The notes under the pieces: generated by a model | The model's database searches: none | What the model was told of the DNA's origin: nothing | The model's input: the letters and a program-made list of their open reading frames with translations, nothing else | Assembly: GCA_035765775.1 (NCBI GenBank) | Contig: DASTWV010000057.1 | Span: forward strand, 27,160-91,159 | DNA from: Actinomycetota bacterium | GTDB lineage: Bacteria; Actinomycetota; CADDZG01; JAHWKV01; JAOPZY01 | DNA: 64,000 nucleotides | Direction of reading: 5' to 3' | Made by a program: the position numbers and the translations under genes | In this document: piece after piece, positions 9,042-56,597 of the stretch | Layout of the letters: every line of letters begins with the position of its first letter | Numbering within the stretch: position 1 is the stretch's first letter

Positions 9042-9290
9042 CTACGGGTGGAGGTTGTGTTCCTTTGCGATCTCCAGGAACTTCAAGATCTCGTCGGGCT
9101 TGGTGTCCTGGTTCCGCAGCGGCTGGAGGATCAGCGGGTCTTCGACCCTCTGGTGTGTGAACACGTGCCGGATGCCACGAGGGCCCTGGTAGCGGTAGCC
9201 ACAGGCCTCGATCATGCGCCGGAAATCGTTGAACGACACGTTGAGGACGTCACCGTTGCTGACCTGCTGGAAGAGCGGTTTGGGTTCCAT
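9042..9290 (-). CDS. HicA-like (YcfA family) putative toxin
   Basis: 82 aa from an internal ATG. The segment ...FRRMIEACGYRYQGPRGIRHVFTHQRVEDPLILQPLRNQDTKPDEILKFLEIAKEHNL follows the HicA pattern of an x-G-W/Y..G-S/x-H-h-F-x-H core followed by a Pro/Lys-rich C-terminus. Local GC is lower than the surroundings. Confidence 0.45.
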   Translation of the reverse strand: MEPKPLFQQVSNGDVLNVSFNDFRRMIEACGYRYQGPRGIRHVFTHQRVEDPLILQPLRNQDTKPDEILKFLEIAKEHNLHP

Positions 9291-41962: not shown

Positions 41963-42757
41963 GTGGGAACCATGGCCGCCACCGACCAGCACGCCCTCGA
42001 CACCGTCCGGGGCTGGATCGCCGGAGCGAGGTCGATCGTCGCCCTCACCGGTGCCGGCATCTCCACCGAGTCCGGGATCCCGGACTTCCGGGGGCCGTCC
42101 GGGGTGTGGACCCGGGACGCCAAGGCGGAGCGCCTGAGCCACATCGACGCCTACGTCTCCGATCCCGCCCTCCGGGTCGAGGTCTGGCGCCAGCGCATTG
42201 CCCACCCGGCGTGGAGCGCGGTGGCGAACCCGGGCCACCGGGCGTTGGTCGACCTGGAGCACTCGGGGCGGCTCTCGATGCTGGTGACCCAGAACATCGA
42301 CGGCCTCCACCGCGACGCCGGCACGTCGCCCGGCCTCCTCATCGAGATCCACGGCACCATGCGGGACGTCATCTGCCTGGCATGCGGCGACCGGTTCCCC
42401 GCCCAGCAGGCCTTCGACCGGGTCCGGGCGGGCGAGGAGGACCCGCCCTGCCTGGGCTGCGGCGGCATCCTGAAGTCGGCCACCATCTCGTTCGGCCAGT
42501 CCCTCATCCCCGAGGACCTCGCCCGGGCCGAGCGGGCGGCCGCGGAGTGCGACCTCCTCCTCGCCATCGGCACATCGCTGCTGGTCTACCCGGTGGCGGG
42601 CCTGCCCCGCATCGCCCTGGAGCACGGCGCCCGACTGGTGATCGTCAACGGTGAGCCGACCCCCTATGACGGCGCCGCCCACGCCGTGGTCCGCCTGCCC
42701 ATCGGCCAGGTGCTCCCCCGCCTCATCCCTCACGAACCGGGCCGGCTGCCCTCGTAG
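41963..42757 (+). CDS. NAD-dependent protein deacylase, Sir2/CobB family
   Basis: LTGAGISTESGIPDFRG, QNIDGLH and Zn-binding CLACG...CLGCGG. Confidence 0.85.
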   Translation: MGTMAATDQHALDTVRGWIAGARSIVALTGAGISTESGIPDFRGPSGVWTRDAKAERLSHIDAYVSDPALRVEVWRQRIAHPAWSAVANPGHRALVDLEHSGRLSMLVTQNIDGLHRDAGTSPGLLIEIHGTMRDVICLACGDRFPAQQAFDRVRAGEEDPPCLGCGGILKSATISFGQSLIPEDLARAERAAAECDLLLAIGTSLLVYPVAGLPRIALEHGARLVIVNGEPTPYDGAAHAVVRLPIGQVLPRLIPHEPGRLPS

Positions 42758-43554
42758 AAGGCCACGGCCGCCGCGCTCGCCACGTTCAGCGAGTCGACCC
42801 CGGCCGCGATCGGGATGCGGACTGCCGCATCGGCCGCCGAGAGGGCTGCCGCAGACAGGCCGGGGCCCTCGGTGCCCAGCAGGAACGCCACCCGGTCCCG
42901 GGCGCCCAGGCCCAGCGAGCGGATGTCTGCCGCCCCGGCACCCGGCGTGAGGGCGACAACGTAGAACCCCTCCGCCCGCAACCACCCGATGCCCCCCGGC
43001 CACGCCGCCAGCCGGGCGGAGGGCACCGAGAGGACGTGGCCGATCGAGACCCGGATGCAGCGGCGGTAGAAGGGGTCACAACATTCGGGCGACAGCAGCA
43101 CGGCGTCCAGCCCGAAGGCGGCGGCGTTGCGAAAGATGCCGCCCAGGTTCTCGTGGTCGGTGACCGCCTCGGTGACCGCCACCCGCCGGGCGGAGGCCAC
43201 CAGGGCCGCCGGGTCCACCGCCGGCCCCCGGAGGGCCGACGCCAGGACCCCCCGGTGGATGTTGAAGCCCGCCACCGCGTTCATGACCGCCTGGTTCGCC
43301 ACGTAGACCGGGTGGGCGACGCCATCGAGCAGCGCCCCGAGAGCGGCCAGCCCCTTCGGGGTCACCAGCACCGAGCGCACGCCGAACCCGGACCCGAGCA
43401 GCCGGCGGACGACGAGCTCGCCCTCGGCGATGAAGATCCCCTGGCCGCCCGCCCCCGGCTCCTCGACCGCCCGGCGCAGGTCAGCATCCTTCAGGCCGAT
43501 GTAGTCGGCCAACCGGGGATCCCCGGGGTCGTCGACCTCGACCGGGGCGCTCAC
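42730..43554 (-). CDS. TrmH/SpoU-family RNA 2'-O-methyltransferase
   Basis: An N-terminal VDDPGDPRLADY (L30e-like substrate-binding) region precedes SPOUT motifs ENLGGIFRNAAAFGLDAVLL, LLGTEGPGLS and IPIAAGVDSLNVASAAAVAFYE. The GTG start overlaps the stop of the upstream oxidoreductase (GTGA). The track ORF extends a further ~250 aa upstream in a Gly/Arg-rich non-protein-like stretch. Confidence 0.8.
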   Translation of the reverse strand: MSAPVEVDDPGDPRLADYIGLKDADLRRAVEEPGAGGQGIFIAEGELVVRRLLGSGFGVRSVLVTPKGLAALGALLDGVAHPVYVANQAVMNAVAGFNIHRGVLASALRGPAVDPAALVASARRVAVTEAVTDHENLGGIFRNAAAFGLDAVLLSPECCDPFYRRCIRVSIGHVLSVPSARLAAWPGGIGWLRAEGFYVVALTPGAGAADIRSLGLGARDRVAFLLGTEGPGLSAAALSAADAAVRIPIAAGVDSLNVASAAAVAFYEGSRPGS

Positions 43555-44570
43555 CCGATATCGACCAGCACCTTGCCCACCGCCCCCGCCTCGACGGCCT
43601 CGTGCGCGGCGGCCATCTCCTCGAGCGGGAAGCGGATCACGGGCAGGCCGGCCGCCTCCCCCACCCGGAGAGCGCCGTCCGCCACGGCGCTCGCCACGGC
43701 GGCCACCGCCGCCTGCTTCACCGCCGGGGCCAATCCGTACACGAGCACGAACTGCCACCGGGCATTCAGCACCATCGAGGGCCGCACCGGGATCGCCGCC
43801 TCCGGGGTCCCGCCGCTGGCGTAGGAGGCCACGGTGCCCCCGGGAGCGAGCACCGCCATGTCCAGGGCGGCATTGGCGACGACGGCCACTTCGACCACCA
43901 GGTCCACGCCGCCCGGAGCCGCCGCCCGGATGGCCGACCCGGCGTCCTCGGTGCGGTAGTTCACCACGCAGTGCGCCCCGGCGGCGGCCGCCAGGACGCC
44001 CTTCTCGGGACTGCTGACGGTCGTGATCACGGTCGCCCCGGCCCAGCGGGCGAGCTCGATGGCGGCGTGGCCCACCGACCCGGCCCCACCGGCCACCAGG
44101 ACCGTCCTGCCCGCCAGCGCCCCGGGGGCCAACTGGGCCGGGCCCTCCCCCGCCGTGAGGCAGCGGTGGGCGGTGATCGCCGGGGTGCCGAGGCTGGCGC
44201 CGAGCTCGAACGGGGCGCCCCCGGGCAGGGCGACGGCGTGGTCGGCGGGGAGGGCGACGAACTCCTGGCCGGTGCCCCCCGGGCGCTGGAACTGGGCTTC
44301 CCACAGCCAGACCCGCTCCCCCACCCGGCCCTCCGGGACACCCGGGCCCACCGCCTCGATCACGCCGGCGCCGTCCTGGTTCGGTACCACCTCGGGGAAG
44401 GGCGTCGGCTGATCGGGCGCGCTCCCCCGGCGCACCTTCCAGTCGGTCGGGTTGACGCCCGATACCGCCACCCGGACCAGCACCTCGCCCGGACCCGGGT
44501 CGGGTACGGGCCGCTCAGCCAGCTGCAGCACCTCCGGCCCCCCGGTGCGGGAATACACGATTGCCTTCAT
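43551..44570 (-). CDS. NADPH:quinone oxidoreductase / medium-chain dehydrogenase-reductase family
   Basis: N-terminal MKAIVYSRTGGPEVLQLAERPVPDPGPGEVLVRV, and a Rossmann motif LVAGGAGSVGHAAIELA. Confidence 0.85.
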   Translation of the reverse strand: MKAIVYSRTGGPEVLQLAERPVPDPGPGEVLVRVAVSGVNPTDWKVRRGSAPDQPTPFPEVVPNQDGAGVIEAVGPGVPEGRVGERVWLWEAQFQRPGGTGQEFVALPADHAVALPGGAPFELGASLGTPAITAHRCLTAGEGPAQLAPGALAGRTVLVAGGAGSVGHAAIELARWAGATVITTVSSPEKGVLAAAAGAHCVVNYRTEDAGSAIRAAAPGGVDLVVEVAVVANAALDMAVLAPGGTVASYASGGTPEAAIPVRPSMVLNARWQFVLVYGLAPAVKQAAVAAVASAVADGALRVGEAAGLPVIRFPLEEMAAAHEAVEAGAVGKVLVDIG

Positions 44571-44748
44571 CTTGTCGCTCCTCCCTTATGCCAACAGAGC
44601 CATCGTCCCACGCAGGGCCGGAGTGCCAAGAGTTCAAGAGGTGTTCACGCTCCGTTCACACAAACGGGGCGTTGCGCTGCGCGGCACTGTGTAGGCTCGA
44701 GAGAGAACCGATGAACAGGACCGAGGGGCCGAGAGGCCGGAGAAGCCA

Positions 44749-45387
44749 TTGAAGAGGGGACAGCCGGGTCCCGAGACCGCCGTGGACCGCCTGCTGGAGC
44801 GCCAGCGGTTGGCGCAGGCACTGGCCTACGTCCCGGCCGGGGTCCGCCTGCTCGACGTGGGGTGCGGCGACGGCGCCCTCCTGCGGGCCGCCGGATCCCG
44901 GATCGGATGGGGGGTGGGCATCGACCCCGCCCTCCCCGGCACCATCATCGGGCGCAACTACCGGTTGGTCCGGGGGGCGTTCCCCCAGCACCTCGACGAC
45001 CGGGACCCCTTCGACGTCATCACCCTGCTGGCGCTCCTCGAGGAAGTACCCCGGGGCCAGCTCCCCGCCCTGGCCTCGGCCTGCGCCATGCACCTGCACC
45101 CGGGCGGGCGCCTCATCGTCACCACGCCCTCACCGGGGGTGGACGGGGTGGCCCGCCTGCTGGAGAGCGCCCACGTCATCTCGGGCCCGCCCCGGCGGCG
45201 CACCCTGCTCGATGCCGCCGAGATCCGGGACGTCTTCGCCGCCGCCGGGCTTTCCATCGAGGCCAGCCGGCACTTCGAGCTCGGCTACAACAACGTGCTG
45301 GTTTTCGCCCGGAACCGCCTGGCGCGGACCTTCATCCAGCTGCCCGACACCGCCCCCCGGCACCCGGTCCTCTCCGGCCGGGGCTGA
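44749..45387 (+). CDS. Class I SAM-dependent methyltransferase
   Basis: Motif I LLDVGCGDGALL and motif II HLHPGGRLIV. 212 aa. Confidence 0.75.
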   Translation: MKRGQPGPETAVDRLLERQRLAQALAYVPAGVRLLDVGCGDGALLRAAGSRIGWGVGIDPALPGTIIGRNYRLVRGAFPQHLDDRDPFDVITLLALLEEVPRGQLPALASACAMHLHPGGRLIVTTPSPGVDGVARLLESAHVISGPPRRRTLLDAAEIRDVFAAAGLSIEASRHFELGYNNVLVFARNRLARTFIQLPDTAPRHPVLSGRG

Positions 45388-45723
45388 TCCCCCGGCGGCC
45401 CGCCGGCTGGTGTAGCGCTCGTACTGCATCCGGAACAGGGCGATCACGCCCTCGGCGTCCTCGGGGCGGCGCATCCAGCAGCTCACCCACCCGCTGTCGG
45501 GCAGCACATGGTGGGGCTCGGCCCGGCCTGCAGCGATCACCTCGTCGTGGATGCGGCGGGGGAAGGGCAGGTCCGCCAGGCGGTCGCCGTGCACGTGGCC
45601 CAACTCCCGGCGGCCGAGCCGGTACTCGATCCCGCCGAAGCGGTGCACGGTGGTCGCAACCCCCGGCCAGGATGCCACCGCCTCACGGATCAACTGGCCG
45701 GCGGATTTCGCAGACGTGGCCAT
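45130..45723 (-). CDS. Hypothetical protein (true 3' end uncertain; ORF overlaps convergent methyltransferase by ~250 nt)
   Basis: Internal ATG MATSAKSAGQLIREAVASWPGVATTVHRFGGIEYRLGRRELGHVHGDRLADLPFPRRIHDEVIAAGRAEPHHVLPDSGWVSCWMRRPEDAEGVIALFRMQYERY. This ~110-aa N-terminal part is compositionally protein-like. The C-terminal tail overlapping the methyltransferase is Gly/Pro-rich and probably not translated in this form. Confidence 0.35.
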   Translation of the reverse strand: MATSAKSAGQLIREAVASWPGVATTVHRFGGIEYRLGRRELGHVHGDRLADLPFPRRIHDEVIAAGRAEPHHVLPDSGWVSCWMRRPEDAEGVIALFRMQYERYTSRRAAGGSAPAGEDRVPGGGVGQLDEGPRQAVPGENQHVVVAELEVPAGLDGKPGGGEDVPDLGGIEQGAPPGRARDDVGALQQAGHPVHPR

Positions 45724-45992
45724 GAACCACGGTACTCCGGGCCAAATTTTTAACTTGACCGCCGCGCCCGGCGTCCGGAGAATCAAGAGAAATCGGCGAT
45801 TCCCGTGCCACTGGGGGCCCCCGCTTGTATCACCAAACGGACAACTCGCCAGCGATTCACGTACCACCGGCCCCCGATCCCGCCCGGGGGGCCGCCGCTA
45901 TCCACACCGGCGCCTCGGCCGCCATGCTGGCCACCCGCGGCGCCAGCCCCGGGGTCGTCCCGGCCAAGATCCGGGCACCCAGGGCGGATGGC

Positions 45993-48815
45993 ATGCGCCG
46001 GCTCCGGCTCGAGGAGGCCCTCGCCGCCGGGGCGTGGGACCGCACGCTGAGCCTGATAGCCGCCCCGGCGGGCGCGGGCAAGACGACGCTGCTGGCCCAG
46101 TGCGCCGCCGCGCTGGGCGCGCCGGCCGCCTGGTACCGGGTCGAGGAATCCGACGGCGACGCCCGCCTTGCGCTGGCCTACCTCGAGGCCACCCTGCGTG
46201 ACGCCCTCCCCGGCCTGCCCGGCCTCCCGGGCGGGTGGGCGAGCGTGGAGGACGCCGTGCTCGCCCTGGAGGGGTCCCCCGCCACCCGGGTGGTCCTGGT
46301 GGTCGACGACCTCCACCTCCTCGAGGGGACACCGGCGGCCGGGGCCTTCGAGCAGTTGCTCGCCTACCGGCCCCCGTCGCTGGCCGTCCTGGCCGCCACC
46401 CGGCGCGTGCCGTCCCTGGCCCTGCTCACCCGCCTGCGCATCGCCGGCCAGCTCCTCTACCTGGGGGCCGAGGACCTCCGCTTCCGGAGCTGGGAGGTGG
46501 AGCGCCTGTTCGCCGAGCACTACCGCCAGCCCCTCCCGCCGGAGGAGGCGGGCGAGCTGGCCCGCCGGACCGAGGGCTGGGCCGCCGGGCTGCAGATGTT
46601 CCACCTGGGCACCAGCGGCAAGACCGCCACCGAACGGCGCCAGACCCTGGCCGCCCTCGCCACCCGGCGGCTGGCCCGCGAGTACCTCGCCCGCAACGTG
46701 CTGGACGACCTGCCGCCCGCGCTGCGCCAGTTCCTGGTCGGAAGCTGCGTCCTCAGCCGCATGTCCGGGCCGCTGTGCGACGCCCTGCTCGGCACCACCG
46801 GCAGCGAGCGCTGCCTGCAGGAGCTGGAGCGCCGCCAGGTGTTCACCTCCACACTCGACACCGGCGGCTACCGCTACCACGAAGCCCTCCGGGCGCACCT
46901 CGAAGGGGTGCTGCGGGAGGAGCTCGGCCCCGACCTCGCCCGGGACCGCTACCGCAAGGCGGGGACCGTCCTGGAGGCCGACGGGCTGGCGGTCGACGCC
47001 CTGCAGGCGTACTGCCGGGCAGAGGACTGGCCGTCGGTGGAGCGGCTGCTGGGCGCGGCGGGCGGCAGCCTGGCCATGGGGCGGGGCGACTGGATCAGCC
47101 TGCTCCCAGCGAACCTGCGCGCCCACGATCCCTGGGCACTGCTGGCCACCGCCCGCCGGCTGCGGGCGCACGGCCGCTGGACCGAGGCCCAGGCCACCTA
47201 CCGCCTCGCCGAGGAGGGGTTCGGCTCCCAGGCCGGCCCGCAGACCGGCCTGGACAGCGCGGTGGAGGAGCGCCTCGCCCTGGGCTCCTGGATGGAGCCC
47301 GCCCCGCCTGCCCCCGACTGGAGCGGGGCTCTCCGCCGGGCGGTCGCCGGCGACCCCCTGGGCGCCCTGGCCGGCGGCATCGCCGGGGCGCGCGGGCTGC
47401 TGGCGGGGGGCCTGGCCAGCCTGCTGGCCGGGGACGTCGATGAGGCCCGGAGCCGGCTCGCCACCGTCCTCGGCGCCGAGGACGCCAGCCCCGAGCTGGC
47501 TGCCGGGGCCATGGTCGCCGAGGCGGCCGCCGCGGCCCTCGCCGGTCTCCCGGAGGCCAAGGAACTCGCCGAGCACGCCTCGGCCCGGGCCGAGGAGCTG
47601 CGGATCCCCTGGCTGGCCCGGGTCGGCCAGGCGGTCCTCGCCCTCACCGACCGCCCGGACGGGCGCTCCGAGGCAGCCGCGGCCCGCTTCTTCTGCCAGG
47701 AGCAGGGCGACGCCTGGGGCGCCAGCCTCGCCGGGCTGCTCGAGGGCCTCGGGGAGCTGCAGGCGGGCGGGACGCACGCCGGCGTGCTGGAACAGGCCGC
47801 CCACGGCTTCGCCGGGCTGCACGCCTACGTCCTCGAGGCCTGGTGCCTGTGCGCCCGGGCCGCGATGCTGGCCGCCGCCGCCGACCCGCAGGCCCGGGCA
47901 GCGGCCGATCACGCCGAGCGCCAGGCCCGCCGCGTGGGCCTGCGGGGACCGTGGGCGCTGGCCTACCTCGCCCTTGCCCGCATCGACGGGGCCTCGCTCG
48001 ACGAGGTCGGCCGCTGGGCCGGGGCGCTCAGCCGGGACAGCGGGTTGGCCCTGCTGCGTGCCTTCGCAGCCCCCCGGGCAAGGACGGGCCCGGCTGACCC
48101 CCCGCCGCCCCCCGTGCGGGTGCAGTGCTTCGGCGGGTTCAGCCTCTCGGTGGGCGGCGCCGAGGCGGACCTCGCCCGGGTGAAGCCCCGACCCAGGAAG
48201 CTTCTGCACCTGCTGGCCCTGCACGCCGGCGCCCCCCTGCACCGTGAGGTCCTGATCGAAGCTCTGTGGCCGGGCGCCGATCCCCGCGTGGGTGCCCGGA
48301 ACCTGCACGTGGCGGTCTCGGTCCTGCGCCAGTGCCTCCAGTCCGCCCCTGTGTCAGGGGCGGTGCGCATCGACCGGGACGGGGAGGACTACCGGCTGGT
48401 CCCGGCCGCGGCCTGGTCGGTCGATGTCGTCGAACTGGCCGACCTCGTGGGGCGCGCCCGGCGCCTCCAGGCAGGCGGCGAGCAGGCCGAGGCCGTCGGG
48501 ACGCTGACCACCGCCCTCAGCATCTACCGGGGCGAGCTCTTCCCGGAGGACGGGCCGGACGACTGGGTGGTGCGGGCCCGGGAGCGCTTCCGGTCCCTGG
48601 CGGTCGAGTCCGCCTGCGAGCTGGCCGACCTCCTCCTGGCCGAGGGCGACGGGCTGGCCGCGGCCCGGGCATGCGAGCTGGGCCTGGACGCCGACCACAC
48701 CCGGGATGACCTGTGGCGGGCCCTCGAGGAGGCCCACGAGTTGGCTGGCAACCACGCCGCCGCCCTGGCGGCGCACCGGCGCTACGAGAAGGTGCTGGCC
48801 GACCTGGGGATTTAG
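45993..48815 (+). CDS. Large regulator: N-terminal NB-ARC/AAA ATPase + TPR-like repeats, C-terminal SARP module (OmpR-type winged HTH + BTAD)
   Basis: MalT/LAL-like N-terminus RLRLEEALAAGAWDRTLSLIAAPAGAGKTTLLAQ (P-loop), with LVVDDLHLL as Walker B. A long Ala/Leu-rich helical repeat region follows. The C-terminus has VRVQCFGGFSLSVGG....RPRKLLHLLALHAGAPLHREVLIEALWPG (wHTH) and ELFPEDGPDDWVVRARERFRSLAVESACELADLLLAEGD....AALAAHRRYEKVLADLGI (BTAD). The domain order is inverted relative to canonical AfsR/SARP-LAL proteins. The internal ATG at 45993 is used. Confidence 0.8.
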   Translation: MRRLRLEEALAAGAWDRTLSLIAAPAGAGKTTLLAQCAAALGAPAAWYRVEESDGDARLALAYLEATLRDALPGLPGLPGGWASVEDAVLALEGSPATRVVLVVDDLHLLEGTPAAGAFEQLLAYRPPSLAVLAATRRVPSLALLTRLRIAGQLLYLGAEDLRFRSWEVERLFAEHYRQPLPPEEAGELARRTEGWAAGLQMFHLGTSGKTATERRQTLAALATRRLAREYLARNVLDDLPPALRQFLVGSCVLSRMSGPLCDALLGTTGSERCLQELERRQVFTSTLDTGGYRYHEALRAHLEGVLREELGPDLARDRYRKAGTVLEADGLAVDALQAYCRAEDWPSVERLLGAAGGSLAMGRGDWISLLPANLRAHDPWALLATARRLRAHGRWTEAQATYRLAEEGFGSQAGPQTGLDSAVEERLALGSWMEPAPPAPDWSGALRRAVAGDPLGALAGGIAGARGLLAGGLASLLAGDVDEARSRLATVLGAEDASPELAAGAMVAEAAAAALAGLPEAKELAEHASARAEELRIPWLARVGQAVLALTDRPDGRSEAAAARFFCQEQGDAWGASLAGLLEGLGELQAGGTHAGVLEQAAHGFAGLHAYVLEAWCLCARAAMLAAAADPQARAAADHAERQARRVGLRGPWALAYLALARIDGASLDEVGRWAGALSRDSGLALLRAFAAPRARTGPADPPPPPVRVQCFGGFSLSVGGAEADLARVKPRPRKLLHLLALHAGAPLHREVLIEALWPGADPRVGARNLHVAVSVLRQCLQSAPVSGAVRIDRDGEDYRLVPAAAWSVDVVELADLVGRARRLQAGGEQAEAVGTLTTALSIYRGELFPEDGPDDWVVRARERFRSLAVESACELADLLLAEGDGLAAARACELGLDADHTRDDLWRALEEAHELAGNHAAALAAHRRYEKVLADLGI

Positions 48816-48840
48816 CGTCGGCGGTGCTGCCGACGCTCGC
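48816..48840. terminator. Bidirectional hairpin between convergent genes (putative terminator)
   Basis: A perfect 9-bp inverted repeat, AGCGTCGGC-ggtgct-GCCGACGCT, lies immediately after the regulator's TAG and 6 nt before the PAAR gene stop. A short T-run (TTT) precedes it on the plus strand. Confidence 0.4.
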
Positions 48841-48845
48841 CGAGC

Positions 48846-49148
48846 CTAGCCGCCGATCTCCACGGTCGGGAGACCCAAAGCGATCGCCCCGCCGTGCGCG
48901 GTGGTGTCGCCCATCCGGGCGGCGGGCTTGCCGTTGATCAGGACCGTGACCGAGCCCTTCACGATCGTGTCGGGCGGCCCCACGCAGGTGCACATCATGC
49001 CCATCGTGGCCGCCGGGACGCCCCCGATCAACACCGGGGGGCCTGCCGGGGGCCCGGTCACCGGCCCGCCGACGTGCGGTATGGGCGGCGTTCCGGGCGT
49101 GACCATCGGGCAGGTGTGCATGTCGCCGATGCGGGCCGCCGGGGGCAT
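48846..49148 (-). CDS. PAAR-domain spike-tip protein
   Basis: 100 aa from an internal ATG behind the AAGGAG RBS. Sequence MPPAARIGDMHTCPMVTPG...PVLIGGVPAATMGMMCTCVGPPDTIVKGSVTVLINGKPAARMGDTTAHGGAIALGLPTVEIGG carries three PAAR-like motifs (PAARIGD, PAATMG, PAARMGD). Confidence 0.85.
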   Translation of the reverse strand: MPPAARIGDMHTCPMVTPGTPPIPHVGGPVTGPPAGPPVLIGGVPAATMGMMCTCVGPPDTIVKGSVTVLINGKPAARMGDTTAHGGAIALGLPTVEIGG

Positions 49149-49155
49149 GGCTCTC

Positions 49156-51804
49156 CTACTCCTTGGTGAAGAACTCCAGCTCACTGATGGCCACGGAGGT
49201 GCCACCGCTGGACGACGGGTAGACCGACTCGATGGTGATCGTCACCCCCCGGATGCCATGGCCGTGCTCCAGGGTCAGGAGCTGGGCGTCGGGCTGGTTC
49301 TTGAGCGTCAGGGTGTCCGACTGCCCGTTGCTGTAGCTGATGAGCACCGACTTCGGCCGCGGCTCGGCGACAAAGGTGGCGCCAATGCCGCTGAACACGT
49401 TCACCCGGTCCAGGTTGACCGGTTGCTGGGACGTGGAGGAAAAGAGGATGAACATCGAGACCCCCACCCCGAGCTTGGGGCTCGCCTGCGCCTGCCACCA
49501 GGTGTTGGTGTGACCGTCGATGGCCTGCGCCGCCAGGTGCGTGGGCACTGAGGAGGTCGACGAGGCGTTCAACGGCGTCACCAGGTTGTAGTGCGGCGAC
49601 ACCTTCTTGCGGATGCTGGAGGTGACGCTCTTCACCTTGTTCTCGACTGTCTTGCGGTACGGCCCGGCGGCGGCCACGATCCCGGCGACCACCGCCAGGG
49701 CGATTATGATCTTGATCACCTTGCCCACTGCCGAGGGCTTGGGGGCTGTCCGGCTCCCGTGGCCCTGGGCCGGCCGTTCGCCGGCGGCGAGCACCGCCTT
49801 CTTCCGCCCGAAGATGCGCTTCCACCAGGAGACCTTGGGTGTCGGGGCCACGACCGCCGCCTCCAGCGAGGTGCCACAGCGCCGGCAGAACCTGCGGTTG
49901 GGCGTATTGCCCTCACCGCACTGGCCGCAGATGAGGTCGCCCGGAGCGTAGGTGCGGGCCGGTGGCGGCGCCTCCGCAGGGGCGGGCCGGGCTTTGGCGG
50001 CCGCGGGCTTCACCGCCTCGGGCTGGGACACCTGGGGCTTCACCGCCGCGGGGGCCTGGGGCGGCATCGGTCCCCCGTACGGCGAGGGCGACGCGGCGTA
50101 GGGAGGCGCCGGTGCGCCGGGGGCCGGGGCTGGCGTGTCGGCTCGTGACGCGGCCGCGGGGGCCTGCGTCGCCGGAGCCGGTTCCCAGAGGGAACGCTGC
50201 GGCGGCGGAGGGCCCGGTGGTGCGGGAGGAGGTGGAGCTCCCCACAGAGGAGGTCCCGCGGGCGCGGCAGGCGGCGCGGGCGGGCCTGCTGCCGGTGCCG
50301 GGGTGGGTCGGGGGCCGGCCGGCGATGCCCCGGGCGGTGGTGGTGGGGGCGCCTTGGCCACGAGTGCCGCTGCTCGGCGGGCAGCCTCCTGGGCCTTGGC
50401 CGCCTGCTCGGCGGCGAGGCGGGCCTCCTCCTGCGCCCGGCGGGCCTCCTCTTCCGCCTGGGCCTTGGCGGCGGCCTCCGCTTCCGCGCGTCGGGCCTGC
50501 GCCTCCGCTTCCCGGCGGGCGGCCTCATGAGCCTGGGCGGCAGCTGCAGCCCGAGCCTCCTCCTCGAGCCGGGCGGCCTGCTCAGCCTGGCGCGCCTGTT
50601 CCGCCTCGGCAGCCTCCTCGGCCGGCGTTGGGGGTGGCGTGCCGTCCGGTCCAGCCGCCAGGCCAGCCCCGGGCGCCGAGCCGGCGTCGCCGGGCGACGG
50701 GGGCGACCCAAACGACGTGGCGGGCGCAGGCGGCGAGAGAGGCGCAGCAGGCGATACGGCGGGCTCCGACGGCGCCGGCCCAGCAGGCGGGCGGGTCCCC
50801 AGGACGCTCTGCATCCGTGGACGACGTGCCCTGCCGGTTTCCGGCGCCGGGGCGCCCGTCGATGCCGGGGCGTCAGCCGCTGCGGTCGACAGAGATTCGG
50901 CTTCGGCGCCTACCGGTCCTTCCGGACCGGCGGGTGCAGGGGCGTCGTCCGCCAAGGACCGGCGCCCGGGGCGAGCCGGCCCCAACGGAGCGTCGCTCAG
51001 GCTGTAGCGGCCGGACGCGAGCGGTTCTGCCCATGGTTCCACCCGGGCCCGGGCAGGCTCTCCCGCCGGCCCAGGCGGCTCCGCACTCGGCCCAGGAGGC
51101 GCTGCTCCCACCGGTCCGGGTGGCCGTTCGGCGGTCTTCTCACCCCGCGGGCCCGGTCTCGGCCCACCGGTCCCGGCCGCCTCGGCCGGGGGCTCCGGTG
51201 CCACGTCCGGACCCGGTTTCGGTCCCGGCTTGGACGCTTCCTCCGAGCGGGCCGCAGCCGCAGCCGCCTCAGCAGCCGCCTGCATTTGGGCCTGGGCGGC
51301 GTCGGCAGCTTGGGTGGCGTCGGCAGCTTGGGCGGCCTGCCGTCTCGCAGCTTCCTCGGCCTCAGCGGCGGCGTGGCGCCGGGCGGCTTCCTCAGCCTCG
51401 GCCCGTTGGTGCTCCTGCTCGGCGGCCACCCGGGCGGCCTCGGCCGCAGCCCGCCGGGCCTGCTCCTCGGCGGCGGCACGGCGGGCGGCTTCCTCGGCGG
51501 CTCGGCGGGCGGCCTCCTCGGCCTCCGCTGCCCGGCGGCGGGCTTCCTCGGCAGCTCGCTGGGCGGCGAGGCGCTGGCGCTCCTCCTCCCGTTGCCGGAG
51601 CTCGGTGGCCAGGTCGGGCGGCGGGGGGGGCGGGGTCAGCGGAGCCGGCGCCGGGGTGGGTGAAGGCACCGGAGCGGCCTCCGGGGGGAACGCCGGGGCG
51701 GCGGGTGCCTCGCGCTCCCCGGTGAATTCCAGGAAGGAGCCGCAGGAACCGCAGAACTCGTCGCCGTCCTCGTTGCGGTTCCCGCACTGCTTACAGATGA
51801 TCAA
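49156..51804 (-). CDS. Double zinc-ribbon / coiled-coil / single-TM / discoidin (F5/8 type C)-like domain protein embedded in the CIS operon
   Basis: The likely TTG start overlaps the gpI stop, and a GAGGTGG RBS lies 7 nt upstream. The N-terminal zinc ribbon is IICKQCGNRNEDGDEFCGSCGSF. About 500 aa of Ala/Glu/Arg-rich coiled-coil (RRAAEAEEAARRAAEEAARR...) alternate with Pro-rich segments. A second zinc ribbon is LICGQCGEGNTPNRRFCRRCGTS. One TM helix (VIKIIIALAVVAGIVAAAG) follows. The C-terminal ~170 aa, AIDGHTNTWWQAQ....GGTSVAISELEFF, resembles the F5_F8_type_C/NPCBM carbohydrate-binding fold. The upstream ~115 codons of track ORF 49156..52149 are a non-coding extension. Confidence 0.7.
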   Translation of the reverse strand: MIICKQCGNRNEDGDEFCGSCGSFLEFTGEREAPAAPAFPPEAAPVPSPTPAPAPLTPPPPPPDLATELRQREEERQRLAAQRAAEEARRRAAEAEEAARRAAEEAARRAAAEEQARRAAAEAARVAAEQEHQRAEAEEAARRHAAAEAEEAARRQAAQAADATQAADAAQAQMQAAAEAAAAAARSEEASKPGPKPGPDVAPEPPAEAAGTGGPRPGPRGEKTAERPPGPVGAAPPGPSAEPPGPAGEPARARVEPWAEPLASGRYSLSDAPLGPARPGRRSLADDAPAPAGPEGPVGAEAESLSTAAADAPASTGAPAPETGRARRPRMQSVLGTRPPAGPAPSEPAVSPAAPLSPPAPATSFGSPPSPGDAGSAPGAGLAAGPDGTPPPTPAEEAAEAEQARQAEQAARLEEEARAAAAAQAHEAARREAEAQARRAEAEAAAKAQAEEEARRAQEEARLAAEQAAKAQEAARRAAALVAKAPPPPPPGASPAGPRPTPAPAAGPPAPPAAPAGPPLWGAPPPPAPPGPPPPQRSLWEPAPATQAPAAASRADTPAPAPGAPAPPYAASPSPYGGPMPPQAPAAVKPQVSQPEAVKPAAAKARPAPAEAPPPARTYAPGDLICGQCGEGNTPNRRFCRRCGTSLEAAVVAPTPKVSWWKRIFGRKKAVLAAGERPAQGHGSRTAPKPSAVGKVIKIIIALAVVAGIVAAAGPYRKTVENKVKSVTSSIRKKVSPHYNLVTPLNASSTSSVPTHLAAQAIDGHTNTWWQAQASPKLGVGVSMFILFSSTSQQPVNLDRVNVFSGIGATFVAEPRPKSVLISYSNGQSDTLTLKNQPDAQLLTLEHGHGIRGVTITIESVYPSSSGGTSVAISELEFFTKE

Positions 51805-52340
51805 CCGGTGACCACCTCGATCTGGTGGGGGATGTGGGCGGGCTTTCCCGAGGAAACTACCGCTTCGAGCCGTTGGCGATCCACAACTCCTGCATCGGCC
51901 ACCCGAACCCGCACCTTGAGGGACGGCTCGGCGGTGCCCGGGAGATCGCCGTTGGGCACCGGCGACCACGCGGCGGCCCCGCTCTCCTCCACCTCGACGT
52001 CGCCCCCGAAGACAAGGCGCACTAGCCCGACCAACCCCCGCACCGTCCCCCGCTGCGCGTAGAGCGCGGACGCCTCGCCCACCAGCGCCCGCCGCCGCTC
52101 CAGCGACCAGGTCTCGTCCAGCACCACCCCCACCCAGCCGGCCAACCATTCCAAAAAGTCCGGGGGAGCGACGGCGGGGCTCAGGTAGGCGTCGAGGTTG
52201 TCGAGGGCCAGGAACACCGGCGCCAGCACCTCATCCAGCCCGGCGGTGATGCGCTGGGTGAAGCTGTCCTCGTAGTAGATCGGCGGCAGCAGGAACCCCA
52301 GCGGCTGGGGGCTGGCCATACCCCGGACGGCGCCCCTCAT
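51801..52340 (-). CDS. Baseplate protein, P2 gpI-like (Afp12/Pvc12 position)
   Basis: LLPPIYYED...DAYLSPAVAPPDFLEWLAGWVGVVLDETWSLERRRALVGEASALYAQRGT matches the Tail_P2_I family signature (LLPP....LLPWLA....W....R.....HR.KGT). The ATG overlaps the gpJ stop (ATGA). Confidence 0.75.
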   Translation of the reverse strand: MRGAVRGMASPQPLGFLLPPIYYEDSFTQRITAGLDEVLAPVFLALDNLDAYLSPAVAPPDFLEWLAGWVGVVLDETWSLERRRALVGEASALYAQRGTVRGLVGLVRLVFGGDVEVEESGAAAWSPVPNGDLPGTAEPSLKVRVRVADAGVVDRQRLEAVVSSGKPAHIPHQIEVVTG

Positions 52341-54283
52341 GCCGGCTCGACCAGGACCTGGTGCCCGTAGGAGAACACCAGGGCATGGGGGTCGATCGCC
52401 AGGCGCTGCACGGCCTCGCCCCGCCGGCCGGTGATCGGATCCGCCGGGTAGAGGCGGGCCTCGTCCACCAGCTCGACACCCGGCAGGCGCTGCAGGACCG
52501 CGTAGACCTCACCCGCGTGGATGGGGCGCCCGAACGGCCAGCCGGTCCCGTCGGGGCCGCCGCTGATCGGGTGGAAGTACCCGTAGAGGGCTTCGACCGC
52601 CGCCGCCCGCAGGCGGTCCACCGAGGCCGACCGGCGGGCCCGCAGCCGGGCCACCACGGTGATCCCCTGGTAGACCGGGGGCTCCACCACCAGGCGGGAG
52701 CCGATCACCCGGCGCTCGTCGAGGGCCCCCGCGACCCGGGCGAGCGTCTCGTCCGAGGGGACCAGCTGCTCGAACTCCAGGCGCCCGGCCTCCCGCTCGC
52801 TGGCCGCCGGCACCACCAGCACCCGGACGGCCCCGGGATCGGCGCCATTGCCCGCAGGCGCACACCGGACCCGGGCGACCTCGGGCGCCGCCTCGAGGGA
52901 GATCTGCTCGTAGTCCTCGGCGGTCACCGCCCGGTCCCGGGTCCGCAGGGTGAGGGGGCCCCGCAGTTTCGCCGACTCCAGGTCCTCGCCGTCCACCCCG
53001 CCCGAAGCGGGGCGCCGGTTCACCACCGAGCCCACGAAGGGGATCGTGGTGCGCAGCACCGAGATGGCACCCCGAGCGACGTTGCCCCGCCGGCCGCCGC
53101 CGGTGCGGTAGGAGCGCACCCGCAGGACGGCGCCGTCGCCCGGGGCGGCCCCGTACCGGCGCAGGGACCCGTCGGGCTCCCGGACGGCGGGGCCGAAGGC
53201 GATCTCGCCGCTGGCGGCGTCCAGCTGGAAGTGGCGGTCGTGCGGGCCGCTGTGGGCGAAGCCGTCCACCGGAGCCCACTCCTCCCACCCCTCGCCCTCG
53301 CTCACCTCGAGGATCACGGGGGCCTCCCCCGGGACCACCGGGGCGTTGCGCAGCGGGTAGCGCTGGCCGGCGCCCCCGGTGGCGGTGGCCACCACCTCGC
53401 CCTCGATGATCTCGGCGTTCACCGCCACCGTCGTCCCGCCGATGGTGGACGCCGCCACCCGGCTGATGAACGGCGGGGCGCTGTAGACCGGCTGGCCCTC
53501 CTCGGCGTCGGTGACCCGGCAGCGCAGCCAGCCCGCCCGTCGGCCGGCGATCTGGGAGGCCTGGTGGGAGGCGGGGACGTGCAGCACCACCTCGCCGTCC
53601 TTGTTCAGGCCCCCGGTGGTGTCCCGCTCGAGCTCGCAGACTGCCCAGCCCCGGCCATCCCATGCCTCCCAGGCAATCGGGGGGTTCCGGGGGTCGACAC
53701 CGACGCCCTCGATCCGGCAGCCCAGCTCCAGGAGGACCGCACACGACGGCACCGGGTTGGACAGGCCGATCAGGAGGGCGTCGCCCGGCTTGGGGGGCGC
53801 ATCGAAGCACGGGAAGCCATCCCCGATCTCCAGCCGGTCGGTCTGGTCGCCGGCCTGTGGGCCGAGGGCCGTGGCGACGCGAGACCGGGAGCACGGAACA
53901 ATGGCGAGGTCCGAGAGCACCGTGAACGACACCGCCTCCTCGGTGGGCGTGCGCAGCGTCGATACCTCGGTCCCGGCGGGGACGTCGATGGTGACCTCCT
54001 GGGTGGCGGACAGCCAGAAGGTCACGTCCACCTTGGCGGCGGTGGGTGGGAACAGCCGGATCCCCATGAGGTCCAGGAACTTGATGTAGAGCCGGTCGGG
54101 CACCCGGTTCAGCCGGAACAGCAGCTGGTCGGTCATGAAGGCGAACGTCTCGATCAGCGTCACGCCCGGGTCGGAAACGTTGTGGTCGGTCCACTCCGGG
54201 CAGCGCTGCTGGACCAGGCGCTTGGCCTCGTCGACCAGGTCCTGGAACCGGCGATCATCCAGGTTCGGCGCCGGCAGCGTCAT
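52337..54283 (-). CDS. Baseplate J-like protein (gpJ / Afp11 homologue)
   Basis: 648 aa. The N-terminal LDDRRFQDLVDEAKRLV....WTDHNVSDPGVTLIETFAFMTDQLLFRLNRVP is the conserved Baseplate_J N-terminus. Confidence 0.85.
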   Translation of the reverse strand: MTLPAPNLDDRRFQDLVDEAKRLVQQRCPEWTDHNVSDPGVTLIETFAFMTDQLLFRLNRVPDRLYIKFLDLMGIRLFPPTAAKVDVTFWLSATQEVTIDVPAGTEVSTLRTPTEEAVSFTVLSDLAIVPCSRSRVATALGPQAGDQTDRLEIGDGFPCFDAPPKPGDALLIGLSNPVPSCAVLLELGCRIEGVGVDPRNPPIAWEAWDGRGWAVCELERDTTGGLNKDGEVVLHVPASHQASQIAGRRAGWLRCRVTDAEEGQPVYSAPPFISRVAASTIGGTTVAVNAEIIEGEVVATATGGAGQRYPLRNAPVVPGEAPVILEVSEGEGWEEWAPVDGFAHSGPHDRHFQLDAASGEIAFGPAVREPDGSLRRYGAAPGDGAVLRVRSYRTGGGRRGNVARGAISVLRTTIPFVGSVVNRRPASGGVDGEDLESAKLRGPLTLRTRDRAVTAEDYEQISLEAAPEVARVRCAPAGNGADPGAVRVLVVPAASEREAGRLEFEQLVPSDETLARVAGALDERRVIGSRLVVEPPVYQGITVVARLRARRSASVDRLRAAAVEALYGYFHPISGGPDGTGWPFGRPIHAGEVYAVLQRLPGVELVDEARLYPADPITGRRGEAVQRLAIDPHALVFSYGHQVLVEPA

Positions 54284-54702
54284 TCCCCGACCCCCGCTTC
54301 CGGCAGGGTCTCGCTCGGGATCACGTAGAAGGGGAACACCAGGTTGCGGGGGTCATTGGTGCCGCGGATCGAGTACTGCACGTCGATGTAGACCGTCGAG
54401 GCATCGGCCGGGTCGGTGGTCACCGCGATCCCTTCCACATCCACCCGGGGCTCCCAGCGCTCGATCGACCGGCGCACCTCGTAGGCGATCCGCCCGGCGG
54501 TGGACCCGGTGACGGCGGCGAAGACGAAGTCGTGGATGGCGCACCCGAACTCGGGGCGCATCGGCCGCTCGCCGTAGGCGGTCCCGATGATGAGCCGGAT
54601 GGCCTCCTCGACCTCCTGTTCGCGCCCGACGAGGGCGATGCCCCCGCTGGCGCTGGTGCGCACCGGGAAGGCCCAGCCCTTGCCGACGAAGTCCTCGGTC
54701 AC
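54280..54702 (-). CDS. gp25/GPW-like baseplate wedge protein (lysozyme-like fold)
   Basis: VTEDFVGKGWAFPVRTSASGGIALVGREQEVEEAIRLIIGTAYGERPMRPEFGCAIHDFVFAAV....IERWEPRV belongs to the GPW_gp25 family. The GTG start follows a GAGGGAG RBS, and the track ORF extends further upstream into noise. Confidence 0.85.
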   Translation of the reverse strand: MTEDFVGKGWAFPVRTSASGGIALVGREQEVEEAIRLIIGTAYGERPMRPEFGCAIHDFVFAAVTGSTAGRIAYEVRRSIERWEPRVDVEGIAVTTDPADASTVYIDVQYSIRGTNDPRNLVFPFYVIPSETLPEAGVGE

Positions 54703-54728
54703 GTGCGCTCCCTCATCGTTGGCCCACC

Positions 54729-56597
54729 TCAGTTGATCTTGACGATGGCGCCCTGGACCTGGACCATGGCGCCGCCTTTGAGCTCGGCAGTGGCGTTGGC
54801 GTTGATGCTGATCGTGGCGCCCTGCACCGTGACCTGGGCGGTTCCGTTCGCCTTCAGCTGCACCCCCTTGATCTCGACGTTGCCGCCGCCGCCGTCGATC
54901 GACACCCCGCTGTCGGCCTTGATGCTCACCTGGCGGCCCTTGAGGTCCAGGTTGCCCGCTGCGGTGATCTTGATGTCGCCCGGGGCCCCCTTGCACTCGA
55001 TCTCGATGGTCCCGTCGGCATTGATGGTCAGCTTCTGGTTGTTCTTCGACAGCTTCACGATGTACTTGCTGTCGCCGGTCTGCAGCAGGATCCCGTCGTC
55101 GGTCCCCTCCTTCTCGGTGAAGGAGAGGCGGTGGTGGGTGCGGCTGAAGAAGTCCCGGCGCTGGACCTTGCCCGAGGCATCGTCGATGGTCGGCACCGAG
55201 CCGGTCGGCGGCTTGTCGACGCCGTTGTAGAGCCCGGCCAGCACGTACGGCCGGCGGCTGTCGCCCTGCTCGAAGGCCACCAGCACCTCGTCGCCCACCT
55301 CGGGCACCAGCACGGCCCCGTACCCGTTGCCCGCCGAGATCTGGGCGACCCGCGCCCAGTCGCTTTCGTAGGTATCGTCCAGCCAGGGGAACTTCAGCTT
55401 GACCCGGCACTGGTTCTCCGGGTCCTTGGCATTGGTCACGATCGCCTGCACCACCCCGGGGATGGGTTTCCGGGACGCGGAACCGCTGCCCTTGCCCGCT
55501 GCCCCGCCGGAAGCGAGGCCCAGCAGCGTCGAGTTCTGCTTGCCGCTCACGGTGAAAAAGGTGGTGTAGCCGCCGTCGGGGTCATAGTGGTGGCGGGCGG
55601 AGGTCAGGCGGTACTTACCGTCGAACGGCTTGCCCACCTGCCCGAGGCTGACGGCCGCCCCCGCCTTCAGGTCGGTGTTGCCCAGGGCCACGCCGTCGAA
55701 GGTGGCGGAGGCGCTGCCGATGTCCTCGGCCCGGGCCGCGGCGGCGGCCTCGCACTCGGCCTGCGTGGCGAACGGGATGCTGGCGGCGAGGTGCGTCGGC
55801 GAGCCGAATTTGCCGCCCAGGTCCGCCGGGGTGACATCGAGATGGCTGGCGGAGCTCTTCGCCGGCGACGTCCCCACTATCTCCCGCTTCTGCTTGGGGT
55901 CCCAGCTCCGGACCTTGACCTCCGTGACCTGCTCGGCGGCGGAGACCGCGCAGCGGAAGCTCAGCAGGTTCTCCCCCAGGGTGAGCTGCAACGGGTTGGT
56001 GGAGGCAAGCGTGCCGGGGCCCGGAGCGCCCGACGCCGACTGCGGCTTGCGGAAGTCGAGCTTGCCCTTGGTGACCATCAGCTCGTAGCCCACCTCGGCC
56101 GACAGCCCACCGAGGAAGTCCCAGTCCGAGCAGTTGAACTGCGTGATCACGTCGTGCACGACCGATGTCGAGTCGACGGTCCCCAGCGACAGTCCATTGC
56201 GCTGGGCCACCTTGCCCGCCACGTCCGAGTAGCTCATGTTCTTGTAGGCCGCGGTGGTCCGCCCCCGGAACAAGCGGTGGGACGTGTCGAGTCCGCGGAC
56301 CACCGAGAGCGTCCCCAGCGGGTCGTGCTCGGCCTCCAGGGCCGTGATCTCGGCGTCCTCGATCAGGACCGTTCCCGAGGGGCTGGCATCCGACACCACC
56401 TTGATGGTCACCTTGCCGCCGATCTGGATCCCGGACGAGGCCGCAAACACCACCCGGCCAGGGTCCCGGAAGGTGAGCACGAAGGCGTCCGGGAGGTTGA
56501 GGCTGGTCTCCACGTAGGCGGACACCAGCAGCTCCTCGAGCGACGCGCTGAGCGGGGAGCCTGCGAGGCTCACCGACAGCGAGTGGGTGGGGTTCAT
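54729..56597 (-). CDS. VgrG/gpD-gp5-like central spike protein
   Basis: 622 aa from an internal ATG overlapping the upstream stop (ATGA). An N-terminal Phage_GPD-like region and a middle OB/gp5-like region (GVVQAIVTNAKDPENQCRVKLKFPWLDDTYESDWARVAQISAGNGYGAVLVPEVGDEVLVAFEQGDSRRPYVLAGLYNG) are present. The C-terminus is a beta-helix of repeats (KLTINADGTIEIECKG...DIKITAAGNLDLKGRQVSIKADSGVSIDGGGGNVEIKG...). Confidence 0.85.
   Translation of the reverse strand: MNPTHSLSVSLAGSPLSASLEELLVSAYVETSLNLPDAFVLTFRDPGRVVFAASSGIQIGGKVTIKVVSDASPSGTVLIEDAEITALEAEHDPLGTLSVVRGLDTSHRLFRGRTTAAYKNMSYSDVAGKVAQRNGLSLGTVDSTSVVHDVITQFNCSDWDFLGGLSAEVGYELMVTKGKLDFRKPQSASGAPGPGTLASTNPLQLTLGENLLSFRCAVSAAEQVTEVKVRSWDPKQKREIVGTSPAKSSASHLDVTPADLGGKFGSPTHLAASIPFATQAECEAAAAARAEDIGSASATFDGVALGNTDLKAGAAVSLGQVGKPFDGKYRLTSARHHYDPDGGYTTFFTVSGKQNSTLLGLASGGAAGKGSGSASRKPIPGVVQAIVTNAKDPENQCRVKLKFPWLDDTYESDWARVAQISAGNGYGAVLVPEVGDEVLVAFEQGDSRRPYVLAGLYNGVDKPPTGSVPTIDDASGKVQRRDFFSRTHHRLSFTEKEGTDDGILLQTGDSKYIVKLSKNNQKLTINADGTIEIECKGAPGDIKITAAGNLDLKGRQVSIKADSGVSIDGGGGNVEIKGVQLKANGTAQVTVQGATISINANATAELKGGAMVQVQGAIVKIN

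Follow-up and report, generated by a model that had tools for sequence, protein, structure and literature searches.

What stands in the tail-fibre position of an actinobacterial contractile injection system (CIS) operon, between the gene for a gpI-like baseplate wedge protein and the gene for a PAAR protein? The question is raised by a 64,000-nucleotide stretch of DNA, here called the window (contig DASTWV010000057.1 of assembly GCA_035765775.1, positions 27,160 to 91,159), which carries an open reading frame (ORF) of 882 codons at window positions 49156-51804. Exact look-ups place the window in a third-party-annotated metagenome-assembled genome (MAG) that NCBI labels "Actinomycetota bacterium" (Cis11 HEU5003791.1, PAAR HEU5003788.1). 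A preliminary description, drawn from the sequence letters, had compared it to a membrane adaptor proposed for Streptomyces CIS, and this comparison proved apt: the ORF is a sequence homologue and a positional orthologue of Streptomyces coelicolor CisA (Sco4242). The analysis points, with a probability of about 0.8, to a CisA-family bitopic membrane protein of a Streptomyces-type CIS that would recruit the baseplate to the membrane and trigger or license firing.

Homology to CisA extends over the conserved parts of the protein. Residues 1-310 of S. coelicolor CisA were taken from a CIF file in the supplement of PMC12237407, and its C-terminal domain (CTD) was represented by orthologues that are 84-98% identical in the matched parts of residues 1-310. 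A scan of genome contigs with this segment gave 80 Streptomyces loci, from which 53 full CisA ORFs were extracted. The segment contains C6/C9/C20/C23, a disordered linker, C223/C226/C237/C240, the motifs PWWRRLF and AGDRP, and a transmembrane (TM) helix, all colinear with the window protein. BLASTP aligns its residues 223-276 with window residues 626-678 at 37% identity (E 3e-9), and residues 6-29 with residues 4-27 as well. Residues 621-882 of the ORF align end to end with the CisA of locus L009, which is 89% identical to the S. coelicolor protein, at 28% identity over 265 residues (E 2e-19). This C-terminal module matches all 53 extracted Streptomyces proteins, and the CTD alone retrieves 45 of the 53 by BLASTP (best E 4e-8).

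A two-way best-hit test was modelled on the criterion of PMC12237407 (S. albus J1074 CisA), with the reverse search covering 17-kb loci. Within the window, the one hit of S. albidoflavus CisA (L067) is this ORF (E 2.6e-13), and the ORF in turn hits nothing but cisA in L067 and L009. Since the end-to-end alignment, the matches of the CTD to NCBIfam NF047619, the two-way search, the cis12 and cis11 genes upstream and the identity of Cis11 and gp25 to their Streptomyces counterparts all agree, the ORF is best classed as a divergent, extra-long CisA/Sco4242 orthologue. It stands after cis11-cis12 and combines the CTD with a Cys-rich domain, an N-terminal ribbon and a predicted single TM helix, as members of the CisA family do. 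The gene is not new, and neither is the arrangement: Sco4242 homologues with a TM helix, a preceding Cys-rich and probably Zn-binding domain ("conserved domain 2") and a carbohydrate-related CTD of ~150 residues are already on record (PMC10020575). Streptomyces and other actinomycetes carry such homologues in their class IId clusters (PMC10020575, PMC10066040).

Comparative analysis with S. coelicolor CisA shows a shared plan and several distinctions. In both genomes the gene directly follows cis12, and both proteins carry an N-terminal zinc ribbon, a low-complexity linker, a second ribbon, the motifs WW[KR]RxF and AG[DE]RP, a single TM helix and a ~150-residue CTD of the NF047619 type. The linker measures ~200 residues in S. 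coelicolor and 604 in the window protein. The PAAR gene follows cisA in the window rather than lying between VgrG and gp25; a convergent BTAD regulator adjoins the window cisA; and the window comes from an uncultured Actinomycetota MAG rather than from Streptomyces.

The anatomy of the protein fits this assignment. The two ribbons account for all of its cysteines, exactly eight, and the Pfam scores for Zn_Ribbon_1 and DZR both exceed their cut-offs. The two CxxC...CxxC ribbons noted at the outset are therefore present, but 604 residues separate them, not the ~500 first estimated. In the N-terminal ribbon, C4, C7, G8, F17, C18 and C21 are invariant in alignment A1, the four cysteines in A2 as well, and the ribbon aligns to CisA residues 6-29; in the second, C626, C629, C640 and C643 are invariant in alignments A1 and A2, and the ribbon aligns to CisA residues 223-250. 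W660, R663, G675 and R677 of the juxtamembrane motifs are invariant or nearly so and correspond to PWWRRLF..AGDRP in S. coelicolor CisA. The single TM helix proposed earlier also held up: the 19-residue Kyte-Doolittle mean peaks at 2.59 over residues 696-714, with 0.99 as the next best value anywhere in the protein, and AlphaFold2 (AF2) models a helix at residues 692-712. This predicted helix is invariant across the family.

The reading frame and its junctions are equally clear. The ORF described earlier exists, with the correction that it lies on the minus strand, where 49156-51804 is a stop-free frame of 882 codons within a longer open stretch. The plus-strand reading was rejected because stops interrupt the frame. 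As described, the TTG start (51804-51802) overlaps the stop codon (TGA, 51803-51801) of the Tail_P2_I gene as tTGA, with GAGGTGG 7 nt 5' of it. At the other end, tight coupling to the PAAR gene is also seen, but the supposed stop 8 nt before a PAAR ribosome-binding site needs revision: the TAG stop (49158-49156) is followed 7 nt further on by the PAAR ATG (49148), and the AAGGAG ahead of that ATG lies within the last cisA-like codons. The overlap of start and cis12 stop, as xTGA, recurs in 40 of 43 loci. The orthologue in L088, one of the closest relatives, has a CTG (~L088 1317) at the position equivalent to the TTG at 51804. The GAGGTGG box is shared, the CTG overlaps the cis12 stop as cTGA, and no canonical in-frame start is near it, which together suggests coupled re-initiation that tolerates non-canonical start codons.

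Database searches show that the family is large, reaches well beyond Streptomyces and is almost always translationally coupled to cis12. A search with residues 621-882 returned 107 full-coverage relatives, and a profile built from 31 full-length members retrieved, out of 1.84 billion representatives, 918 clusters (at 50% identity) with E<=1e-30. The family order is ribbon, linker, ribbon, WW[KR]RxF, AG[DE]RP, TM helix and discoidin domain. In all five members looked up (Streptomyces sp., Longispora albida and three metagenome or MAG contigs), the gene directly follows Tail_P2_I. Among metagenome loci with 3 kb or more of upstream sequence, 29 of 31 have cis12 and cis11 upstream on the same strand; the two genes also lie upstream in 75 of 75 Streptomyces loci with upstream sequence. 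The suggestion that homologues are linked to CIS genes is borne out by these counts. Two further full-length two-ribbon homologues (L130 5247-6476 and L135 3052-4248) keep the convergent BTAD regulator, and upstream of them lie genes for Ig-like (Cep192_D3/HYDIN/TIG) proteins and a C39-like peptidase.

The function of CisA itself is known from S. coelicolor. There, CisA is a bitopic membrane protein, N-in/C-out by PhoA-LacZ reporter, that is required for in situ contraction and CIS-dependent cell death and is absent from the purified particle; in a cisA mutant, particles assemble and do not contract (PMC12237407). The gene model, domains, homology and linkage of the window protein were computed here, while localisation, topology and the need for CisA in contraction come from those S. 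coelicolor experiments. Because the homologues follow cis12 and cis11, recruiting a cytoplasmic CIS baseplate to the membrane would be the most likely function. The N-terminal 690 residues, with two zinc ribbons, the WWKRIF/AGERP motifs and the very long linker, would be cytoplasmic and contact the baseplate periphery; for Streptomyces, the predicted partner there is Cis11. Free-floating CIS baseplates could be recruited through the ribbons and the conserved juxtamembrane motifs, while the single TM helix would anchor the protein in the membrane. Outside, the discoidin/CBM32-like domain would probably bind cell-wall glycan or sense envelope stress, and may oligomerise; capture of the particle at the membrane would then permit sheath contraction. 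Both the baseplate partner and the discoidin ligand are ones that we infer.

A similar logic, in which a baseplate meets a membrane before firing, appears in TssJLM of the type VI secretion system, in the thylakoid-anchored CIS (tCIS) of Anabaena and in the tail fibres of phages and extracellular CIS (PMC12237407). CisA-type proteins differ from all of these in being separate single-pass proteins outside the particle, and no sequence or domain relationship to them was seen. No factor other than CisA is so far known to connect a cytoplasmic contractile injection system with the membrane and allow it to fire, and CisA has been studied in one species.

The position of the ORF after the wedge genes also invites a different explanation, namely a structural protein attached to the baseplate of a particle that is released from the cell, a genuine tail fibre or receptor-binding protein whose discoidin domain would bind glycans on target cells ("putative fiber", Vladimirov et al. 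2023). The CBM32/discoidin fold is typical of glycan-binding modules, and Sco4242 peptides have been found in purified particles (PMC10020575). This explanation is nevertheless unlikely, given the strongly predicted TM helix that the whole family retains and the Cys4 zinc ribbons, which suit the cytoplasm. Pfam and NCBIfam scans of the ORF yielded only zinc ribbons and the discoidin domain, with no fibre-type domain. Moreover, CisA fractionates with membranes, and the cryo-EM particle shows neither fibres nor CisA (PMC12237407).

Several points weigh against a CisA-like recruiter. The C-terminal module shares only 24-28% identity with functional CisA, a wide gap over which to transfer function. 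Compared with S. coelicolor CisA, the linker has three times the length, and its long predicted helices are missing from Streptomyces CisA, so its mechanics could differ. In Streptomyces itself, the CisA-Cis11 contact is an AlphaFold prediction only (PMC12237407). Charge around the TM helix of the window protein is balanced, at ~+4 on each side; the probable N-in/C-out topology therefore draws on homology to CisA, the lack of a signal peptide and the presence of Cys4 zinc ribbons. The CIS of this organism is, moreover, only probably cytoplasmic. On the supporting side, window Cis11 and gp25 are 56-65% identical to their Streptomyces counterparts (Cis11 alone 56-59%), which puts this CIS in the same class, the Streptomyces-type class IId. 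Finally, no cis11 or cis12 occurs within the 3.5-5.7 kb upstream of the L130 and L135 homologues, which may be rearranged loci or cases of CIS-independent CisA use.

These two loci, in which cisA is paired with the regulator, also bear on the idea that the protein is mainly a transmembrane sensor, signalling envelope state to the AAA/BTAD regulator in the manner of zinc-binding anti-sigma or one-component relay proteins, and that it would control CIS expression rather than dock the particle. In 42 of 66 metagenome loci a homologous convergent regulator is found <=1.5 kb from the cisA stop, as one adjoins the gene in the window, and L001, L004 and L006 have one too; the authors of the eLife paper also speculate on a sensor or checkpoint role (PMC12237407). 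Against this stand the coupling of cisA to cis12 in 40 of 43 loci, which argues for stoichiometric co-production with baseplate proteins, and the S. coelicolor mutant, whose particles assemble without contracting. In addition, a tblastn search (E 1e-5) detected no such regulator beside cisA in 75 Streptomyces loci, the genus in which the CisA phenotype was established. A role confined mainly to sensing is accordingly rated quite unlikely, and recruitment of the baseplate is preferred.

Profile and structural comparisons give the ectodomain a more precise class. The CTD scores 57.2 bits against NCBIfam NF047619 (cut-off 38, E 1.7e-15) and 19.5 against Pfam PF25302, below the cut-off of 27. The carbohydrate-binding type of beta-sandwich suggested earlier is supported by the NF047619 score and by the model, an eight-stranded beta-sandwich that superposes on CBM32. 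By sequence profile, the closest solved structure is PDB 7ji1 (8.7e-18), deposited as "ADP-ribosyl cyclase / cyclic ADP-ribose hydrolase". NADase-type proteins (NF047619/PF25302) are secreted toxins that carry the domain as their N-terminal module, whereas here it forms the C-terminal ectodomain of a membrane-anchored CIS accessory protein that has no NADase domain. Sequence identity to CBM32 and F5/8 type C domains (C. perfringens NanJ CBM32, 2v72; BT3015C, 7blg) is only 15-16%. APC10/DOC domains, which bind proteins, rank as high as CBM32 for this fold; since the same fold also serves protein-protein binding, glycan binding by the CTD is not proven.

The canonical CisA proteins carry the same domain, their CTDs matching NF047619 at 4e-24 (L009, residues 342-465) and 3e-21 (L067, residues 302-428). 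On these profile matches, the CisA-family ectodomain as a whole is assigned to the NADase-type discoidin class. Two papers from 2023 had already termed the Sco4242 CTD carbohydrate-related (PMC10020575, PMC10066040), and in the 2025 CisA paper the ectodomain is likened to solute-binding protein domains, with zinc not mentioned at all (PMC12237407). The S. coelicolor CisA sequence has two Cys4 ribbons.

The length of the linker raises the question of whether it is coding at all. Were the 882-residue ORF a spurious product of high G+C content, a 303-residue C-terminal module would be the real gene, and the stretch rich in Ala, Pro, Glu and Arg would either not code or be read in a different frame. 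A gene caller did produce such a 303-residue protein, together with a 239-residue ORF in another frame, on a Logan contig that is 100% identical to window 42052-50760. The G+C content at third codon positions is 0.64-0.88 in the linker, lower than in the folded domains, and 75 of the 107 database homologues, as called, have one zinc ribbon only. That contig, however, begins inside the gene. A good Shine-Dalgarno sequence precedes the N-terminal ribbon, whose position coincides exactly with the cis12 stop; the ribbon is in frame there in all 37 metagenome loci with enough upstream DNA, and recurs in S. coelicolor CisA. Repeat periods within the linker are multiples of three in 15 of 17 rows of tandem repeats. 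The L088 orthologue, 56% identical, keeps the same frame open through many in-frame indels and shares conserved islands with the window linker (MxSVLGTRP, EAARRAAALVAK-PPPP and QPEAVKPAA). A 303-residue model would also leave 1.7 kb of non-coding DNA inside the operon. The short-gene model was rejected on the truncated contig, the frame kept in L088 and the ribbon in 37 of 37 loci, and an artefact is highly improbable; the evidence says that the long linker is coding. None of the three alternatives (fibre, sensor or artefact) is favoured over a CisA-family recruiter.

Automatic calls treat this family poorly. Members are systematically truncated, or a wrong-frame Arg-rich ORF is chosen in the G+C-rich linker, as in L005 (2-721 and 694-1605) and in P0029 of L006, which really has 591 residues and a true start at 9086. 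The 882-residue product has no exact copy in the protein collection, which implies a different start in the deposited annotation. Overlapping the linker are long ORFs in antisense and other frames (587 residues, 378 residues and others), for example window 49962-51725 on the plus strand; these are shadow ORFs typical of DNA with 78% G+C, and nothing supports them as genes.

Within the linker, AF2 predicts two long helices of 128 and 91 residues, the second 63% identical to its counterpart in L088. The preliminary description had read the Ala/Glu/Arg-rich region as a coiled coil, and the helices themselves are indeed predicted, but the coiled coil was rejected because heptad hydrophobic residues are missing. 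Composition is 44-45% Ala, 22% Glu/Asp and 16% Arg/Lys, with 4% L/I/V/M/F/W/Y and a best a/d hydrophobic occupancy of 0.11 and 0.08. The two helices contain 23 and 16 i/i+4 pairs of opposite charge, have 38% charged residues and 44% Ala, and are predicted by AF2 as isolated helices with a predicted local distance difference test (pLDDT) score above 90. "Charged single helices" may be a more fitting description than "coiled coil", a reading of the models that is unproven. Classical single-helix spacers of the ER/K type are less Ala-rich than these.

At 604 residues, the linker is the longest seen: 162 two-ribbon proteins from two database searches range from 52 to 481 residues (median 170), and 57 metagenome ORFs from 55 to 474. 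Among 213 sampled two-ribbon members, 36 have similar Ala/Glu/Arg helix-like segments of 40-357 residues; no Streptomyces protein is among the 36, and no long helix of this kind was detected in 50 Streptomyces CisA linkers. We infer that a linker with two such helices, ~19 and 14 nm long if fully helical, would act as an extended tether or spacer. One tentative and rather doubtful extension is that the window protein stands for a distinct CisA subclass, seen in the 36 proteins, in which long charged single helices replace or extend the usually disordered linker as semi-rigid rulers or "fishing rods". If so, the helices would keep the N-terminal zinc ribbon tens of nanometres off the membrane and set a capture radius or a firing geometry. 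A second, equally tentative element is that CisA and the BTAD regulator form a sensing pair, one able to occur with no baseplate genes beside it, as in L130 and L135.

Four proteins of 768-923 residues (P0147, P0229, P0233 and P0213) have the longest Ala/Glu/Arg helix-like linkers, up to 357 residues. Their profile match ends ~140-145 residues before the C-terminus, which indicates an extra domain after the discoidin domain.

The Streptomyces CisA linker (L008-L087) is otherwise disordered and has a short motif, DRARSLLVPVADPE, conserved in 48 of 50 cases. Window residues 326-338 (~50791-50829) read RPRMQSVLGTRP and resemble it, and the island R(P)RMxSVLGTRP shared by the window and L088 is only loosely similar. 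The candidate was considered as a baseplate-binding linear motif and set aside; elsewhere in the family the DRARSLLVPVADPE-type pattern turns up in only 3 of 220 proteins, so the likeness could be accidental.

As an extreme natural variant, the window protein could help to test the role of linker length or rigidity in CIS recruitment. The current picture of how CisA acts is unchanged, and the practical value of the locus is therefore better annotation and a comparative resource rather than a new mechanism. The gains are a sharper definition of the family, a class for its ectodomain, evidence of truncated annotation and a natural series of linker lengths.

Features of the cisA-like gene, its product and the surrounding operon in the window (., no strand assigned)
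Feature	Residues	Window position	Strand	Basis
AAA / winged-helix Trans_reg_C / BTAD (SARP-like) regulator, converging on the end of the cisA-PAAR operon	996 aa	45825..48815	+	Pfam BTAD 6e-13, Trans_reg_C 1.3e-7
GC-rich hairpin (GCGTCGGC-agcacc-GCCGACGC)		48815..48836	.	read from sequence
PAAR gene, ATG 7 nt after cisA stop	100 aa	48846..49148	-	Pfam PAAR_motif 1.3e-22; HEU5003788.1
cisA-like gene, TTG start, TAG stop	882 aa	49156..51804	-	open frame, Streptomyces CisA homology, two-zinc-ribbon architecture in 37/37 loci
Probable extracytoplasmic discoidin / CBM32-like (NADase-type, putatively glycan-binding) domain; beta-sandwich	739-881	49162..49590	-	
Charged juxtamembrane helix	714-735			
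Predicted single TM helix	692-714	49663..49731	-	Kyte-Doolittle, AF2
Juxtamembrane motifs WWKRIF + AGERP, probably cytoplasmic	660-678	49771..49827	-	conserved residues
Second zinc ribbon ZnR2, PGDLICGQCG..RRFCRRCG (CGQC..CRRC 626-643)	621-650	49855..49944	-	Pfam DZR 1.2e-8
Pro/Ala-rich segment	485-620			
Predicted long helix 2, composition as helix 1	394-484	50353..50625	-	AF2 pLDDT 86-96
Disordered, Pro/Ala/Gly-rich segment	191-393			
Predicted long helix 1	63-190	51235..51618	-	AF2 pLDDT 92-97, in-frame tandem repeats
Pro-rich segment	28-62			
N-terminal zinc ribbon ZnR1, C4/C7/C18/C21 (CKQC..CGSC 4-21), then FLEF	1-27	51724..51804	-	Pfam Zn_Ribbon_1 1.2e-10
cis12 / gpI-like baseplate wedge gene, stop overlaps cisA start		51801..52340	-	Pfam Tail_P2_I 9e-14, TIGR02242 2e-24
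cis11 / gpJ-like baseplate wedge gene (TIGR02243/Baseplate_J)		52337..54283	-	TIGR02243 1.4e-165; HEU5003791.1
cis9 / gp25-like gene, GTG start at 54702		54280..54702	-	Pfam GPW_gp25 8e-23
cis8 / VgrG-like spike gene		54729..56597	-	Pfam Phage_base_V 1.5e-27

The baseplate operon runs in the order cis8, cis9, cis11, cis12, cisA, PAAR, which makes cisA its next-to-last cistron. Further upstream lie tube, tube-LysM and sheath genes and a 1125-residue ORF without a family match (57771-61148). The gap between VgrG and gp25 (54702-54729) is only 26 nt and so leaves no PAAR gene at its usual site, which L001, L002, L004 and L007 retain. The cisA-PAAR adjacency also occurs in the closest relatives, L088, L089 and L090, whose PAAR proteins are 81-85% identical to that of the window. 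With the window PAAR as query, tblastn at 1e-5 detected no PAAR gene in 74 Streptomyces loci and is too insensitive for distant loci, so the relocation rests on Pfam-annotated loci and these close relatives. The hairpin, placed precisely between the stop of the PAAR gene and that of the regulator gene converging on it, has an 8-bp stem and no U-tract, and it is possibly a bidirectional terminator.

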